A DNA stretch of 64,000 nucleotides from Gammaproteobacteria bacterium (lineage in GTDB: Bacteria > Pseudomonadota > Gammaproteobacteria > Eutrophobiales > Eutrophobiaceae): contig OZ244905.1 in NCBI GenBank assembly GCA_965221695.1, forward strand, positions 3,392,001 through 3,456,000. The letters run 5' to 3'. Below the pieces are notes generated by a model that did not search any database, was not told the origin of the DNA, and saw nothing but the letters and a program-made list of their open reading frames with translations. Of this stretch, positions 12,528 through 23,708 are shown one piece after another; within the stretch, counting starts at the first letter, position 1, and every line of letters begins with the position of its first letter. The translations under genes were made by a program, and so were the position numbers.

Positions 12528-13265
12528 TCAATGCCGCAGTATCTGCCCCAAAAATGTCTTGAGCCGTTCCGACGAAGGATTGCCGAAGAAATCTCCCGGA
12601 TTGTTTTGTTCGATGATACGGCCCTCGTCCATAAAGATTATGCGGTTCGCGACCTGGCGGGCGAAGCCCATTTCATGGGTGACGCATAACATGGTCATGC
12701 CGGATTCGGCCAGGCCGGTCATGGTTTCCAACACCTCGCCGATCATCTCCGGATCCAGCGCGGATGTGGGTTCATCGAACAGCATGATTTTCGGTTTCAT
12801 GCACAACGCCCGGGCGATGGCTACCCGCTGCTGCTGGCCACCGGACAACTGGGCCGGGAATTTTTGCGCGTAGTCACGCATTTTTACCTTGTCCAGGTAA
12901 TACATGGCCAGTTCCTGCGCGTCTTTTTCTGTAGTCTTCCGTACCCGCACCGGGGCCAGCGCCAGGTTTTCCATTACGGTAAGGTGGGGAAACAGGTTGA
13001 ACTGCTGGAATACCATGCCGACCTCTGCGCGCACGGCGCGCACGTCCCTGTTATCCGCCAGCGTTGTTGCCAGCACAGTCAGCGAGCCAGACTGGTAGTT
13101 CTCCAGCGCATTGATGCAGCGAATAAGCGTGGATTTGCCTGAACCGGATGGGCCGCAAATGACAATCTTCTCCCCGGCCTTGACCTGCAGAGTAATGTCC
13201 TTGAGAACATGGAACTCGCCGTACCACTTGTTCAAATTGTCGATTTGAATTATGTCGGAACTCAT
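12528..13265 (-). CDS. Polar amino acid ABC transporter ATP-binding protein (AapP/GlnQ-like)
   Basis: Walker A 'GPSGSGKS', '[10 protein letters not shown]', 'LSGGQQQR', '[11 protein letters not shown]'. Confidence 0.93.
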
Positions 13266-13381
13266 GGCTCAGAGGGTTTCGGCAGCATTCATCCGGAGGT
13301 CATGCTGGAATTTGCCCACCAGTTCAAACATGCTGTGCAGGCAACCTGAATTTGCTTAAGCAAGTATAGTAATACATTATA

Positions 13382-13532
13382 GGAACCTCTGATTAAGTCA
13401 GAGGTTCCTACGATACAAGGATGTATCGTCAAAATCAATGACTATAAGGCATTGATTTTGTGAGGAAAACAAAAATCGCATTTTTGTTTTTCGTACTCTG
13501 ACAAGTCCGGGATGGACTTGTTCAGAGTTTCC
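13382..13532. mobile_element. 151-bp five-hairpin MITE-like element, copy 1, IS5-like termini
   Basis: TATA|GGAACCTCTGATTAAG...CTTGTTCAGAGTTTCC|TATA; inverted near-identical copy at 22236-22385. Confidence 0.88.
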
Positions 13533-13575
13533 TATAGTTGTCGAAAATGTACGATTGCACGAGGTTAATTCAGTA

Positions 13576-15207
13576 ATGCGAAACAAGCTGAGTCATGTAT
13601 TTACCGGTTCATTATTGAGAACTGCCGGGGCGCCAATAATTTTATTATTCATGGTTGCCTGCAGCGAGCGGCAAGCACCGCCCAATATCGTGTTCATCAT
13701 GTCTGATGACCATGCATACAAGGCGATTAGCGCATATGGACATGGCTTGAATCATACTCCCAACATCGACCGGATTGCAAAAGAGGGGGCGATTTTCAAC
13801 AGGGGATTCGTTACCAATTCGATTTGCGCGCCCAGCCGGGCTGTCGTGCTCACCGGAAAACACAGTTTCGTCAATGGCAAAGTAGACAATATCCAGGCAT
13901 TTGACTGGGATCAGCCGAATTTTGCAAAACAGTTACAGGCAGCGGGATATCAAACTGCGCTGATAGGCAAGATACATCTGGACGGGCAACCGCAGGGATT
14001 TGATTATTCTGTGGTACTGCCGGGGCAGGGACATTATTACAATCCGGACTTTATTGAAAATGGTGTAACCAGGCGTATCAAAGGTTATATCACGTCAATT
14101 ACCACTCAACTGGCCCTGGACTGGTTGGAGAATAAACGAGACAGAGAAAAACCGTTCCTGTTACTGTACCAGCAAAAAGCGCCACACAGGAACCGGAAAC
14201 CGGAAGAAAAATATCTGACCTTGTTTGATGATAAAACCTTTAAACCACCGGCAAACTATTTCGATGATTATCGCCGGCGCGGGTCTGCGGCCAAACAACA
14301 GGAAATGCGTATAGATATCCATGCCAGGTGGGGGCATGACTTCAAAATGATCTTTGCGCCGGACGGGGAGGCTACGGACCTTAATGAAGAACTCGAAAGG
14401 TTTGATGACGATCAAAGAAATGCCTGGCTTGCTGCGTACGGCCCAAAAAATGAAGCTATGAAAAGGTTGAACCTGACAGGTTCTGAATTGTCGATCTGGA
14501 AGTTCAACCGCTACATGAAGGACTACCTCAGAACAGTGCGGTCGATTGATGACGGTGTAGGCGAAGTTCTGGATTACCTGGATGAAAACGGCCTTTCTGA
14601 AAATACGATTGTGATTTACACGTCCGACCAGGGGTACTACCTGGGCGAACACGGATGGTTTGACAAGCGATTCATGTATGAAGAATCCTTCAGGATACCG
14701 ATACTTATGCGTTACCCGAAGGAAATCAAGGCAGGCGCGCAAATTGATGAACTGGTTCAGAACCTGGATTTCGCCCCGACACTGCTGGATTACGCCGGAG
14801 TGAAACCAGCGGACGGGATTCAAGGCGAATCGTTAAGAAAAATCCTGAGCGGGGAATCATCAAACTGGCGGGATGCTGTTTATTACACCTATTATGAGTT
14901 CCCTTCGGTACACATGGTCAAACGGCATTACGGAATAAGAACCAGCCGTTACAAGTTAATCCATTTTTACTATGACATCGATGAGTGGGAAATGTATGAC
15001 CTTGAAACAGACCCTGCGGAAATGAACAACGTATACGAGGATGAACACTATGCATCAGTGAGAGCGGCTATGCATCGAAAACTGGCAGAGATAAGGGAGA
15101 AATATGGCGATTCGGACGAATTGAATCAAATGCACCTGGAACGATACCTGAATGACACTTCTATGCACCATTATGAAGAATATATCCTCAAACACATCCG
15201 TGGATAA
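13576..15207 (+). CDS. Cys-type formylglycine sulfatase (S1), probable lipoprotein
   Basis: 'SDDH', 'NSICAPSRA' (CxPxR), 'GKIH', 'SDQG'; hydrophobic N-terminus ending 'MVAC'. Confidence 0.92.
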   Translation: MRNKLSHVFTGSLLRTAGAPIILLFMVACSERQAPPNIVFIMSDDHAYKAISAYGHGLNHTPNIDRIAKEGAIFNRGFVTNSICAPSRAVVLTGKHSFVNGKVDNIQAFDWDQPNFAKQLQAAGYQTALIGKIHLDGQPQGFDYSVVLPGQGHYYNPDFIENGVTRRIKGYITSITTQLALDWLENKRDREKPFLLLYQQKAPHRNRKPEEKYLTLFDDKTFKPPANYFDDYRRRGSAAKQQEMRIDIHARWGHDFKMIFAPDGEATDLNEELERFDDDQRNAWLAAYGPKNEAMKRLNLTGSELSIWKFNRYMKDYLRTVRSIDDGVGEVLDYLDENGLSENTIVIYTSDQGYYLGEHGWFDKRFMYEESFRIPILMRYPKEIKAGAQIDELVQNLDFAPTLLDYAGVKPADGIQGESLRKILSGESSNWRDAVYYTYYEFPSVHMVKRHYGIRTSRYKLIHFYYDIDEWEMYDLETDPAEMNNVYEDEHYASVRAAMHRKLAEIREKYGDSDELNQMHLERYLNDTSMHHYEEYILKHIRG

Positions 15208-18592: not shown

Positions 18593-18621
18593 GCAACCTC
18601 TGATTAAATCTCAGAGCTTTC
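18593..18621. mobile_element. Degenerate short inverted-repeat element (29 bp)
   Basis: TTAA|GCAACCTCTGA-TTAAATC-TCAGAGCTTTC; no matching right flank. Confidence 0.65.
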
Positions 18622-19637: not shown

Positions 19638-21002
19638 ATGCCATCACCCGAAAAAACCTGGTCGTCCAGGTTCACCTTCCTGTGCGCGATGGTCGGCGCG
19701 TCCATCGGGCTGGGAAATCTCTGGCGTTTCCCCTATGTGGCCGGAGAAAACGGCGGCGGCGCGTTTATCATCGTCTACCTGGTTATCATCCTGCTGCTGT
19801 GCGTCCCGCTGGTCATCGCGGAGCTGGCGCTGGGCCGGCGCGGCGGCAAAAGCCCGGTAATGACGATGGTCAACCTGTGCAGGGAAGGCCGGCATTCGGG
19901 TTTCTGGACGGCTATCGGCTGGTTGAGTATTCTCTCTCCGGTTATTGCCTTGTGCTTTTACGCGGTGGTTGCCGGCTGGTCGCTGGATTATGTCTTTTTT
20001 GCGCTGCGCGGCGAGTTTGTCTCCATCACGCCCGATAACGCGCAACAACAGTTTGCCGGACTGCTTGCGTCCCCCGAGCGTCTGACCCTGTGGTATACGT
20101 TGTACCTGGCAGCCACCGTATGGGTCATCGGCCTGGGTGTGCGGCGCGGGATCGAAGCCGTGACCAAGATTATGCTGCCGGCCCTGTTTGTGATGATCAT
20201 CATACTGGTGATCTACGGGCACATCGAAGGGGCGCCGGCGCGCGCCTGGCAATTCATGTTCAACCCGGACTTCTCCAGACTTACCTGGCAAAGCGTGCTG
20301 CTGGCGCTGGGACAGGCGCTGTTTTCCATCACCGTGGGCACCGGGGCGCTGCTGACCTACGGCGCGTACCTGTCCAGGGACATAACCTTGCCCGGCCCCA
20401 CCTGGACGATTGTGATCAGCGACACGCTGGCCGCGCTGTTATGCGGCCTGGCCGTGTTCACCATCGTGTTCGCGTCCGGGCTGGACCCGAGTGGCGGACC
20501 GGGACTGATGTTTGTTACCCTGCCGGTCGCGTTGGGAGCCATGCCCGCCGGCCATTTCTTCAGCGTGCTGTTTTTTGCCCTGGTGTTTTTTGCCGCGTTT
20601 ACCTCTTCCCTGGTCATGTTGGAACCCTTCATATCGTATATGGAAGACAAGGGTTACAAACGCGTTGCGATGTCGGCGCTCACCGGCTTCCTGATCTGGC
20701 TGGTCGGCCTCAGCGCGGTATTTTCGTTCAACGTGATAAAAGACTTCAAGCCCTTGTCGCTGATCCCGCTGTACCGCGACAAGAATATGTTCCACATAAT
20801 TGAATTCAGCGTGTCGAATGTGATGCTTCCGTTCACCGCGTTCCTGATCGCGCTGTTTGCCGGCTGGGTCATCTCCTCTGACCTGTTGCGTAACGAGATG
20901 GGTATCGGCAATAACCGGGTGTTCATGATTTGGAGATTGCTTACCCGTTATATCGCGCCGCTCGGAGTCGGCAGTGTCCTGGTGTTCGGGCTTGTCTCTT
21001 AA
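19638..21002 (+). CDS. Sodium-dependent transporter, NSS/SNF family
   Basis: 'WSSR', 'IGLGNLWRFPY', 'GGGAF', 'GPGLMF'. Confidence 0.93.
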   Translation: MPSPEKTWSSRFTFLCAMVGASIGLGNLWRFPYVAGENGGGAFIIVYLVIILLLCVPLVIAELALGRRGGKSPVMTMVNLCREGRHSGFWTAIGWLSILSPVIALCFYAVVAGWSLDYVFFALRGEFVSITPDNAQQQFAGLLASPERLTLWYTLYLAATVWVIGLGVRRGIEAVTKIMLPALFVMIIILVIYGHIEGAPARAWQFMFNPDFSRLTWQSVLLALGQALFSITVGTGALLTYGAYLSRDITLPGPTWTIVISDTLAALLCGLAVFTIVFASGLDPSGGPGLMFVTLPVALGAMPAGHFFSVLFFALVFFAAFTSSLVMLEPFISYMEDKGYKRVAMSALTGFLIWLVGLSAVFSFNVIKDFKPLSLIPLYRDKNMFHIIEFSVSNVMLPFTAFLIALFAGWVISSDLLRNEMGIGNNRVFMIWRLLTRYIAPLGVGSVLVFGLVS

Positions 21003-21031
21003 GGAACCTCTGACTTAATCTCAGAGGTTCC
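21003..21031. mobile_element. Short inverted-repeat element (29 bp) forming the whole gap between two convergent stop codons
   Basis: TTAA|GGAACCTCTGA-CTTAATC-TCAGAGGTTCC|CTAA. Confidence 0.82.
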
Positions 21032-21985
21032 CTAATCTCTGCGGGATAATAATTTCCTGGACAAGCCGGGGCCGCGTCCGGGTTTGCTCCAGGGACAGAC
21101 CTGTATGCAGATCCCGCAGCCATAGGTGATGCTGAAATAGGGAACGCACTTATCAAAGTCCACGTACCATTTTTCCTCGCCACGCACCAGTTGTTTGCTG
21201 TCTGAAATGGCATCGGCCGGACAGTCTATGACGCAACGCCGGCAGGCGAGGCAGAGATCCTCAACACCGATATCCACGGGACCGTCAACAGCAAGGGGCA
21301 GGTCTGTCAACACGGTTGCCAGGCGGAGGTTGGCGCCCAGCTCCCTGTTGATCAGCGACCCGTGTTTACCCAGTTCGCCCAGGCCAGCCCTGATAGCAAG
21401 GGGGATATGCAGGATGTCGGCGCTCTCGCAATATGCTCTTGCAGGCCAGCCGAGTTTGCGAATCCAGGCTGCCACCCGCACCACGGTATCAGTGATCTGC
21501 GTGTAGGCGCGCAAGGTCTCGACTCCACCCTCTACGCCGGTCACGTGTTCCTCCATGAGATCGAAATCCATCCCGTAAGCAATGGAGACGGCATACTTGT
21601 AAGGCTGTTCGATATCATGAAACTGCGCATCTTCCGTGAACGTCGTAATGCCGACTGCATCAGCGCCGAACTTGCGCGCGATTTGCTTTACCTGCTCTGT
21701 CATGGCGCCGGCATCCGTCACCTCGATACGCTTGGTCGCGATAGCTCCATCAGCTTTGCGTAACAACCACCTTGAGAACAAGCCCCTGATAAATAATCTG
21801 AATGGCATTGTCATCAGGAAAAACAGTTCCAGCGCCCACCACTCCACCTCGCGGAAACCGGAACTGTGGAATATCGGTACCGGCCGGCGCTTTTCGGTTT
21901 CTCCCAGGCCGTTGATTTCATTGCCGGATTTCGGCTGGGAACGGTATTTGAAATGGTACGCCGGTTGCGGCCAGGCGTGCTTCAT
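21032..21985 (-). CDS. Short reductive dehalogenase-like (RdhA/QueG superfamily) protein with two 4Fe-4S motifs
   Basis: 'FGADAVGI', 'PLAIRAGLGELG', 'VLTDLPL', 'CLACRRCVIDCPADAIS', 'KC...CGICIQVCPWSK'. Confidence 0.78.
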   Translation of the reverse strand: MKHAWPQPAYHFKYRSQPKSGNEINGLGETEKRRPVPIFHSSGFREVEWWALELFFLMTMPFRLFIRGLFSRWLLRKADGAIATKRIEVTDAGAMTEQVKQIARKFGADAVGITTFTEDAQFHDIEQPYKYAVSIAYGMDFDLMEEHVTGVEGGVETLRAYTQITDTVVRVAAWIRKLGWPARAYCESADILHIPLAIRAGLGELGKHGSLINRELGANLRLATVLTDLPLAVDGPVDIGVEDLCLACRRCVIDCPADAISDSKQLVRGEEKWYVDFDKCVPYFSITYGCGICIQVCPWSKPGRGPGLSRKLLSRRD

Positions 21986-22188
21986 TGCGGTTTATTCTCC
22001 AGCAAGTCCTCGAGGATGGCCTCGGTGTTCTCTTGTTGCGCCCGGCGGTAGGCGCGCCTGATCTTACGCCCCAGCGTAAACCAGAGCGCGAGGAAGGCAA
22101 AGCTGTCCAGCAACAGGGCAATATCCCGCCTGGCACGCTGTAGCAGTCCCGGATTGGTCAGGTAGAATTTCTCTTCGAAGGAAGGCAT
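21982..22188 (-). CDS. Small hypothetical protein with one hydrophobic segment, translationally coupled to the RdhA-like gene
   Basis: 68 aa, ATGA overlap with the downstream gene. Confidence 0.6.
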   Translation of the reverse strand: MPSFEEKFYLTNPGLLQRARRDIALLLDSFAFLALWFTLGRKIRRAYRRAQQENTEAILEDLLENKPQ

Positions 22189-22235
22189 AGTTGATAGAAT
22201 ACAGGATAAAGGCGTTGATAAGCATATAATGTTAG

Positions 22236-22385
22236 GGAACTCTGAACAAGTCCATCCTGGACTTGTCAGAGTACGGAAAACAAAAATGCGATTTTTGTTT
22301 TCCTCACAAAATCAATGCCTTACAGTCATTGATTTTGACGATACATCCTTGTATCGTAGGAACCTCTGACATAATCAGAGGTTCC
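22236..22385. mobile_element. ~150-bp five-hairpin MITE-like element, copy 2 (inverted relative to copy 1)
   Basis: TTAG|GGAACTCTGAACAAG...ATAATCAGAGGTTCC|TTAG; 5 differences from copy 1 by manual alignment. Confidence 0.88.
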
Positions 22386-22499
22386 TTAGCTCGTCTTGCT
22401 CCAAACTAACGGGCTCTATAGCCGGATTAACCATAGCAGCAGAGTTGAAAATAAGTCTGAAGGAAGCTGCAAGACATCTATTGTAAATGAGATGATCTA

Positions 22500-23708
22500 A
22501 TGAAAATCACCAGCGCCAAAGTCATCGTCACCTGCCCCGGCCGTAACTTCGTCACGCTCAAGATCGAGACGGACGCAGGCGTTTACGGGCTGGGCGACGC
22601 GACGCTCAACGGGCGGGAGCTGGCGGTGGTTTCTTACCTTGAGGAGCATGTTGTTCCCTGCCTGGTCGGGCGCGACCCGCGCCAGACGGAAGATATCTGG
22701 CAGTTCCTGTATCGCGGCGCTTACTGGCGGCGCGGCCCGGTGACGATGACCGCCATCGGCGCGGTGGATACGGCATTATGGGACATCAAGGCCAAGCTCG
22801 CAGACATGCCGCTGTACCAGTTGCTGGGCGGCAGCAGCCGCGCCGGAGTCATGGTCTACGGCCATGCCAATGGCGCGGATATCGACCAGACCGTCGATGA
22901 GGTGGGCAGGTATATCGACATGGGCTACAAGGCCGTGCGCGCCCAGAGCGGCATCCCAGGCCTCGCGTCCACCTACGGCGTGAGTAAGGACCGGCTGTTC
23001 TATGAACCGGCAGATGCGGACCTGCCGCAGGAAAATACCTGGTCCACGGAGAAATACCTGGATCACACGCCGTTACTGTTCGACAGGATCAGGCAGCAAT
23101 ATGGCTTTGACACGCACCTGCTGCATGACGTGCACCACCGCCTGACCCCGATCGAGGCGGCGCGCCTCGGCAAATCCCTGGAGGAATATCGGCTGTTCTG
23201 GCTGGAGGATGCGGTCCCGGCGGAGAACCAGGAAGGCTTCAGACTGATCCGGCAGCATACAGTGACCCCGCTGGCCCTGGGCGAGGTCTTCAATACCATT
23301 TGGGACTGCAAGGACCTGATCCGGGAACAATTGATCGATTATATCCGCGCCACCGTCGTCCATGCCGGTGGGATCACCCACCTGCGCCGCATCGCCGACC
23401 TCGCCGCGCTGTACCACGTGCGCACCGGCTGTCACGGGGCAACAGACCTGTCGCCGGTGTGCATGGGGGCGGCGCTGCACTTCGATACCTGGGCGCCGAA
23501 CTTCGGCATCCAGGAATACATGCGCCACACCGCTGAGACCGACGAGGTATTCCCGCATGCGTATACCTTCAAGGACGGCTTTCTGTATCCGGGCGACGCG
23601 CCTGGCCACGGTGTCGATATCGACGAGAAACTCGCGGCAAAGTTTCCTTACCGGCGCGCGTTCCTGCCGGTAAACAGGCTGGAAGACGGCACCATGTGGA
23701 ACTGGTGA
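22500..23708 (+). CDS. manD: D-mannonate dehydratase ManD/RspA (enolase superfamily)
   Basis: '[11 protein letters not shown]', 'GDATLNGRE', 'YWRRGP', 'HDVHHRL', C-terminal '[10 protein letters not shown]'. Confidence 0.92.

Follow-up and report, generated by a model that had tools for sequence, protein, structure and literature searches.

An orphan IS5-group miniature transposable element whose five hairpins are kept by selection and may act as RNA through a predicted CsrA-type loop

Why should a mobile element of some 150 bp be tiled almost end to end by hairpins, and in which form, DNA or RNA, would such hairpins be kept? The question is raised by a locus in a 64,000-nt stretch of a Gammaproteobacteria bacterium of the Eutrophobiaceae (contig OZ244905.1, positions 3,392,001 to 3,456,000; the whole stretch is called the window below), where an earlier note had described a five-hairpin element between TATA flanks, non-autonomous, mobilised by IS5 and structurally constrained in its interior. 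[quoted passage not shown] The interior, which is unrelated to the IS, consists of five independent hairpins under selection for pairing in at least 28 families of Gammaproteobacteria, and it carries a strand-specific loop pattern together with an orientation bias that is linked to transcription. Taken together, and with slightly better than even confidence, we read the element as an orphan IS5-group MITE whose selected hairpins would function as a top-strand RNA in which the second hairpin is predicted, from its letters, to be of CsrA type. The parts of the copy at this locus (copy 1), in window coordinates, are the following.

13382-13532, plus strand: MITE copy 1, 151 bp, top strand GGAACC...GTTTCC, one of 87 near-full copies in the genome.
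13378-13381, no strand: left target-site duplication TATA, a direct repeat of 13533-13536.
13533-13536, no strand: right target-site duplication TATA.
13382-13399, plus strand: left terminal inverted repeat GGAACCTCTGATTAAGTC, whose first 11 nt are the 5' arm of H1.
13514-13532, minus strand: right terminal inverted repeat, reading GGAAACTCTGAACAAGTCC on the minus strand.
13382-13408, plus strand: hairpin H1, in which the terminus pairs with an internal inverted copy; loop TTAAG.
13410-13429, plus strand: hairpin H2, stem of 8 bp, loop AGGA.
13413-13424, plus strand: ATACAAGGATGT, an exact match to the CsrA consensus RUACARGGAUGU from SELEX (systematic evolution of ligands through exponential enrichment), with its GGA in the H2 loop.
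13430-13460, plus strand: hairpin H3, A/T-rich stem of 11 bp, variable loop.
13464-13492, plus strand: hairpin H4, stem of 13 bp, GGAAAACAAAAAT/ATTTTTGTTTTTC.
13495-13528, plus strand: hairpin H5, in which an internal inverted copy pairs with the right terminus; one conserved bulged T.
13507-13515, plus strand: loop of H5, CCGGGATGG, a second N-GGA-N-G loop.

The minimum-free-energy fold of copy 1, which runs from GGAACCTCTGA to CAGAGTTTCC (13382-13532) and whose inverted-repeat termini are GGAACCTCTGA and GGAAACTCTGA, consists of exactly these five consecutive hairpins, much as the earlier note had drawn them, with H4 moving from 13466-13490 to 13464-13492. Folded as RNA, the top strand reaches -70.6 kcal/mol against -31.9 +/- 3.6 for 200 dinucleotide shuffles, none of which is as stable (z = -10.6), and the bottom strand reaches -66.0 kcal/mol, again with z = -10.6. 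With DNA parameters the five hairpins stay as they are, the energies being -50.8 and -48.4 kcal/mol.

Evaluating the whole genome (3.54 Mb in a single contig, 55% G+C) with blastn revealed 87 copies that cover at least 140 of the 151 nt at 70-100% identity, far above chance, along with fragments. Identical 4-bp flanks border 63 of the 87 copies and are dominated by YTAR (48 of the 63), with TTAA in 33, TTAG in 7, CTAA in 6, TTTA in 5, CTAG in 2 and others in the rest. The element is small, non-coding and multi-copy and possesses both terminal inverted repeats and target-site duplications, as expected of a MITE. A 26-codon open reading frame (ORF) on the bottom strand was considered as coding content and dropped, since its ATG is absent from distant subfamilies in the alignment. 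Mobility of the family is recent. Contigs from runs X1 and X3, which belong to two studies, join position 13377 to 13533 and skip 155 nt, which equals the element and one TATA, with 4 letters fitting either side, and are the exact empty site of copy 1 with a single TATA. Among the Logan contigs placed on the window, run X2 holds the filled site of the same copy, and copy 1 is therefore polymorphic in natural populations. Elsewhere in the genome, at G000:C1:1445255-1445529, two copies overlap head to tail, one being full and the other beginning at element position 17, which looks like a nested or tandem insertion.

The source of this mobility lies with the IS5 group, as the earlier note had proposed. 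A congener carries a partner IS (locus L094, 1003-2151) of 1149 bp, flanked by TTAA/TTAA and ending in GGAAGCTCTGATTAAGCC and GGAAACTCTGATCAAGTC. The transposase of this IS, 313 aa long, reaches 315.5 bits on NF033581 (cut-off 140) and shares 46% identity with InsH1 of E. coli IS5. The left terminus of the MITE matches the left inverted repeat of this IS at 15 of 16 nt and the right terminus its right inverted repeat at 17 of 18 nt, and similarity is confined to these 16-18 terminal nt, the partner IS being without the five hairpins. The likeness to IS5 of E. coli and its group extends to the 4-bp duplication at YTAR, to termini that begin GGAA and to the NF033581 partner transposase, and one end of E. 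coli IS5A (NC_000913.3) shares GAACAAGTCC with the MITE right terminus, 15 of 19 nt being identical. Unlike IS5-group elements, the MITE holds an unrelated five-hairpin module in its interior. We propose that an IS5-group DDE transposase supplied in trans would recognise such termini, insert the element at YTAR and duplicate 4 bp.

The caveat to this assignment is that no such transposase occurs in the genome itself. Profile searches of this genome with PF01609, PF13359 and PF13586 gave 0 matches each, terminus pairs 0.4-4 kb apart enclose no transposase, and 8 terminus pairs have identical flanks, of which the 7 with ORFs read enclose ordinary genes or none. What is present of the partner IS are remnants of 110, 86 and 61 bp at 76-89% identity (G000:C1:3123428-3123536, 1594572-1594654 and 2325192-2325252), and the MITE copies here are therefore orphans. 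Several other candidates were set aside. The single PF05598 match in the genome belongs to another IS5 subgroup, of which an N-terminal remnant of 202 aa is left, and upstream of it there is no matching terminus; the resident IS3-family (3 copies) and IS21-family (2 copies) elements have other ends, and an E. coli IS5-family locus (locus handles H4, L258) proved to be a different IS. Among the five congeners searched, G001 holds two full partner ISs, G014 and G022 hold near-full ones, and G003 and G008 hold short fragments only. A strict terminus scan of the first 30 congener PF01609 loci had given no pair with identical flanks, and the partner emerged after the motif was loosened. The closest named transposases found on plasmids (Rhodanobacter, Sulfitobacter, ISXfu1 family) are at most 55% identical. 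A second IS5-group IS of about 1291 bp was also seen (L062, L073 and L082-L086), with ends (A/G)GGAACCTCTAT(T/A)AAT and a 347-aa NF033581 transposase (279.6 bits); it has at least 25 copies in congener G020, and over 20 nt a single indel and a single mismatch separate its left end from that of the MITE.

Structural constraint on the interior, which had been suspected from five differences between two copies, became evident once variation across the family was considered, with covariation counted over 118 distinct sequences and parsimony run on a FastTree of 132 distinct sequences. A standard pair is formed in 96.8% of cells, compared with 90.0% in shuffles and 32-48% when partners are slid, and both sides have changed in 28 of the 58 pairs where shuffles give 15.6, with 0 of 500 shuffles getting as far. 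The covariation score was 0.211 against 0.093, every hairpin holds double-changed pairs, and parsimony assigned 79 double changes of Watson-Crick type to single branches, spread over 27 pairs, with 4.2 events per paired column and 7.7 per unpaired column. Compensatory exchanges are seen as CG/AU/GC at H1 pairs 5-23 and 6-22, as AU/GC in the lower stem of H2 (29-48, 32-45 and 33-44), where the A-C-A...G-U at the stem top stays fixed, as AU/UA/CG at H3 pairs 51-77, 52-76 and 53-75, as AU or GC at H5 pair 114-147, and as GC, CG, AU and UA at H4 pair 84-110, which alone underwent 10 independent double changes by parsimony. The most distant copies have H2 and H3 almost wholly rewritten with pairing kept.

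Pairing of this kind could in principle arise with no function at all, if the palindromes had been perfected by template switching or arm-to-arm correction and their conservation merely reflected recent spread. Quasi-palindrome correction is an established mutational process, many copies in this genome differ from the consensus by only 1-6 nt, and on internal branches the G-U and A-C intermediates are equally common (15 vs 16), all of which would fit. Such correction would, however, erase the bulged T of H5, which is kept in most sequences, and the U-G that closes the H1 loop, which is kept in 109 of 118; the retention of both argues against simple palindrome correction. It also leaves unexplained why copies at 74-77% identity still pair, why loop positions with 0-1 events lie beside others with 12-20, and why motifs and orientation are strand-specific, such that we consider this explanation very improbable. 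The use of G-U versus A-C intermediates as a test of the selected strand was itself abandoned, since unpaired columns are equally asymmetric and the signal is hence non-specific.

Evaluating the loops further, we compared them with two binding-site consensus strings, RUACARGGAUGU from SELEX for CsrA of E. coli and (A/U)CANGGANG(U/A) for RsmE, which are given in passages of PMC6849547 and PMC6692469. The fixed letters of H2, A-C-A-N-G-G-A-N-G-U, are those of the RsmE consensus, and its positions 36, 38, 39, 40 and 42 show 0, 1, 1, 0 and 0 parsimony events while the N positions 37 and 41 show 17 and 12. The exact 12-mer RUACARGGAUGU, the form taken in the subfamily of this genome, is on the top strand in 78 of the 87 copies, and no bottom strand in the aligned set has it; genome-wide it occurs 103 times against 1.3 expected from composition, with 99 occurrences in BLAST-detectable MITE DNA and 3 of the remaining 4 in decayed MITE copies. 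Across the alignment, CANGGANG lies in H2 of 113 of 118 sequences and on the bottom strand of none, and among 26 additional elements, drawn from as many other families once the alignment existed and with no part in forming the idea, it is on the top strand in 23 and on the bottom strand in 0. In several of these elements the first hairpin is of quite another kind. H5 presents a second loop of similar form, the pattern C[AC]NGGANG being found in 108 of 118 aligned sequences with the first consensus A absent, and parsimony events number 20 at position 128 and 8 at position 132, compared with 2-4 at GGA and G133. These loop patterns suggest that the selected form is the top-strand RNA, in which H2, together with H5, is predicted to bind CsrA, and the genome encodes one canonical CsrA, a protein of 91 aa. 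A 223-bp variant with 6 copies (G000:C1:1137685-1137907, plus 382598, 1204947, 1316929, 1336031 and 1882134) carries between H2 and H3 a 72-bp insert of three more hairpins, one of which has a CANGGANG loop in 6 of 6 copies, and hairpins thus seem to be added as modules.

The placement of copies relative to genes also differs by strand. Of 39 copies between co-directional genes in this genome, 28 have their top strand antisense to the genes (p = 0.009), among non-orthologous sites in other genomes it is antisense in 27 of 35 (p = 0.002), and pooling gives 55 antisense against 19 sense (p = 3e-5). Relative to replication there is no bias (43 vs 44), and G+C asymmetry of the flanks, considered as a cause, was found to be none (0.441 vs 0.439). 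Substitutions on the top strand of all aligned copies are asymmetric in their own way (A>G 128 vs T>C 70; C>T 109, G>A 110), in paired and unpaired columns alike, and this asymmetry coexists with the lack of copy orientation relative to replication.

Orientation and position bear on another explanation, namely that the hairpins are generic 3'-end structures of RNA, either terminators or exonuclease barriers like those of REP/BIME repeats, with the GGA loops incidental. A terminator that is stronger one way would fit the orientation bias, the hairpins are stable on either strand, 84 of 87 copies lie outside called genes, and many adjoin stop codons, with 36 gene 3' ends within 30 nt of a copy. 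Set against this, 27 of the 84 intergenic copies lie between divergent genes, where there is no 3' end, the stems are A/T-rich without a clear U-tract, and a consensus scan of 13250-13650, which spans copy 1, found 0 promoter and 0 terminator sites. A generic barrier would need neither five hairpins nor loop letters that are fixed across families, and we regard this explanation as improbable. The same evidence sorts the options that the earlier note had offered, such that a structured RNA gains from the strand-specific CsrA-type loops and the orientation bias and a portable promoter or terminator cassette loses for want of consensus sites, while an ssDNA substrate keeps some probability.

How far the family extends was evaluated by similarity and by structure. 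With blastn the element turns up in other species of its genus (20 of 22), in other genera of its family (6 of 14) and in other sampled families (4 of 24), whereas a covariance model built from the 118 distinct copies, a check that the earlier note had suggested, recovered full-length matches in 28 of 150 genomes of the class, taken as one genome per family (27 of 148 without two genomes flagged as unpublished). An exact-pattern scan of GTDB representatives gave at least 93 loci, which among the matches listed are all from uncultured metagenome-assembled genomes (MAGs), and nearly all loci listed belong to Gammaproteobacteria or its GTDB orders (Acidiferrobacterales, Chromatiales, Methylothermaceae and others), one being placed in Pseudomonadota only. 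Full-length copies, down to 74% identity, are held by 63 of 112 fetched loci. Among other families, model matches of 50-100 bits (L243-L251 and L254-L256) keep H2-H5, including the ACA-N-GGA-N-GU loop, with a first hairpin that is quite different and is not an IS5-type terminus, as in L248, whose arms GGGGGCTGCT and AGCAGCCCCC surround a loop CAAAA. The H2-H5 core may thus ride on other mobilisation systems. A wider reading, which we entertain tentatively and at a little less than an even chance, is that the five-hairpin core would be a mobile CsrA/RsmA-binding RNA module, either a dispersed CsrA sponge or a portable leader or trailer that responds to CsrA, with transposition rewiring the Csr regulon, and would use more than one mobilisation system.

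That the core persists beside different termini matters equally for the idea that the hairpins serve transposition, in which cruciform or single-stranded folds would collapse the 151 bp (about one persistence length) and so aid synapsis or mark the element. Both termini do fold back on internal copies, with DNA parameters both strands fold into these five hairpins, covariation between subfamilies means that active lineages have kept the pairing, and mini elements of 27-29 bp, in which termini abut, persist as units with their own flanking repeats. Yet the partner IS has none of these hairpins, H2-H5 are kept in elements whose first hairpin is of another kind, a strand-symmetric cruciform leaves sequence-conserved loop motifs with a variable N unexplained, and so too an orientation bias tied to transcription and not to replication. 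We therefore hold a role in transposition to be unlikely, though less so than the 3'-end and no-function explanations.

Returning to the reading of a top-strand RNA with a CsrA-type H2, the proposed mechanism would run as follows. The H2 hairpin, closed by C-G with a loop A-N-G-G-A-U, is a perfect putative high-affinity site for CsrA/RsmA, and a copy transcribed in the top-sense direction would bind CsrA dimers, and the outcome would be either CsrA control of the host transcript or titration of CsrA. Sense insertions would disturb neighbouring genes and hence be thinned out between co-directional genes, and we propose that the sense orientation is under-represented because such insertions affect their neighbours.

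Several points weigh against this reading. The CsrA motif was recognised post hoc, after the conserved loops had been seen, and presence of csrA shows no association with the element, being found in 23 of 28 genomes with it and 99 of 122 without it among the 150 class genomes (the five MITE-positive genomes without a csrA match are all MAGs of 62-90% completeness). The GGA of H5 is no less variable than the average column, and the H2 and H5 sites lie about 90 nt apart, which we take to be beyond the bridging range of one CsrA dimer. Top-strand G-U exceeds A-C overall (109 vs 64), but the excess is gone on the internal branches, where the two are near equal as noted above. The gene calls behind the orientation counts came from our own codon-usage caller, and the count in other genomes dropped 20 of 84 copies that lacked a callable gene on one side or on both. 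Finally, if selection acts against top-sense copies, this reading does not account for retention of the motif in the active lineage.

Placing the element among known systems, we found the family in none of the sources searched, which agrees with the earlier note's impression that it was not a named one. An Rfam 15 E-value search of window positions 13000-14000 gave no family at the gathering threshold, the best being STnc250 at 22.2 bits against a gathering value of 42 (E = 0.089), blastn against PLSDB plasmids gave no match to the element, and a literature search for the terminus strings returned among its best-ranked matches only unrelated ones such as primers. The kind itself is known, and passages of PMC10969869 describe MITEs that derive from ISs and whose transcripts fold. 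A precedent for compensatory changes is bcr1 of the Bacillus cereus group, a transcribed, MITE-like repeat of about 155 bp; according to passages of PMC3184786, base changes that compensate one another preserve the structure of its RNA. Like the present MITE, bcr1 is small and mobile and is bordered by short direct repeats; unlike it, bcr1 folds in a cruciform-like way into two stem-loops that are independent, has flanks of 5 bp and is at home in Firmicutes, and those passages mention neither IS5-type ends nor a CsrA-type loop.

The CsrA-bound RNAs form a second point of comparison, described in passages of PMC4383904 and PMC6692469 as short hairpins with GGA in the loop that usually come in pairs. 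CsrB, RsmY, RsmZ and CsrA-bound mRNA hairpins share GGA-loop hairpins with the MITE, whose H2 fits both consensus strings exactly, but CsrB, RsmY and RsmZ each come from a gene in single copy that has a promoter and a terminator of its own, and carry 5-22 GGA sites, whereas the MITE is a transposon in 87 copies with 2 candidate sites each (the 223-bp variant has 3). Searched with the Rfam models for CsrB, PrrB_RsmZ and RsmY, this genome gave 0 matches, where the control was detected for CsrB only and the other two blanks are weak. A literature search found no link between CsrA sites and MITE or REP-type repeats, CsrA and MITEs being co-mentioned only in the Rfam 12.0 paper, which treats them separately, and the matches for CsrA with REP being irrelevant as judged by title or abstract. 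The CsrA-type H2 loop and the antisense orientation bias of a MITE are new here. Correia/NEMIS, ERIC, RUP, BOX and REP/REPIN are further repeats that abound between genes, fold as RNA and can influence the genes next to them. A modular build like that of the 223-bp variant is seen in BOX and BIME, whereas most MITEs form one long hairpin through their inverted ends and the element here forms five local ones. REP/REPIN elements depend on a RAYT transposase and lack target duplications, in contrast to the 4-bp duplications of the MITE, and a search of this genome for the RAYT family PF01797 gave 0 matches, such that the element is not of the REP/REPIN type.

Beyond copy 1, the window contains a second copy and two mini elements, listed here.

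22236-22385, minus strand: MITE copy 2, 150 bp, its right terminus shorter by one base.
22232-22235, no strand: target-site duplication of copy 2, TTAG on the plus strand.
22386-22389, no strand: target-site duplication of copy 2, TTAG on the plus strand.
21003-21031, no strand: mini element of 29 bp, two termini of the same kind around a 7-nt loop; metagenome depth spikes at 20999-21035.
18593-18621, no strand: second 29-bp mini element, degenerate.

Copy 2 bears out the inverted placement that had been claimed for it, with its right terminus changed from GAGTTTCC to GAGTTCC by the loss of one base and with TTAG/TTAG flanks if that loss is allowed. The five differences between the copies also fall where they had been placed, three in loops (positions 16, 63 and 128), one at position 110 (G-U vs G-C) and one terminal. 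Both copies lie between divergent ORFs, as the note had said, copy 1 between ORFs 12528-13265 (minus) and 13555-15207 (plus) and copy 2 between a minus-strand ORF that starts near 22188 and 22500-23708 (plus). Inside ORF 12528-13265, at 12839-12993, metagenome depth rises 100-fold and many contigs join over about 130-145 nt, which we read as a conserved motif common to other organisms and not as a feature of this genome. At G000:C1:1036000-1107000 there are repeats of great length, both tandem and dispersed, whose periods are 279 and 1182 bp and whose identity reaches 99.9%, which are probably giant repetitive protein genes.

The minis are not limited to the window, as 130 solo elements of 27-29 bp occur genome-wide, each with two like termini around a TTAAG-type loop, and 52 of them have identical 4-bp flanks (TTAA in 22). 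Position 5 of the mini terminus is usually mismatched between the arms, unlike in H1 of the MITE. They may be micro-MITEs made of terminal inverted repeats only, or solo remnants of deletion between the direct TCAGAG-N-TTCC repeats at element positions 17-27 and 141-151.

As for what the family means, a practical gain is that many breaks in assemblies and spikes in depth, seen in MAGs from these lineages, are accounted for by the covariance model and the 27-29-bp minis. MITEs are usually seen as inert passengers with a drifting interior, and here five hairpins and a loop of protein-binding type have been kept across much of the Gammaproteobacteria. If CsrA does bind, transposition would scatter sites for a global post-transcriptional regulator, such that a burst of copies could shift the free pool of CsrA, and mobile DNA would be linked to the evolution of the Csr/Rsm network.

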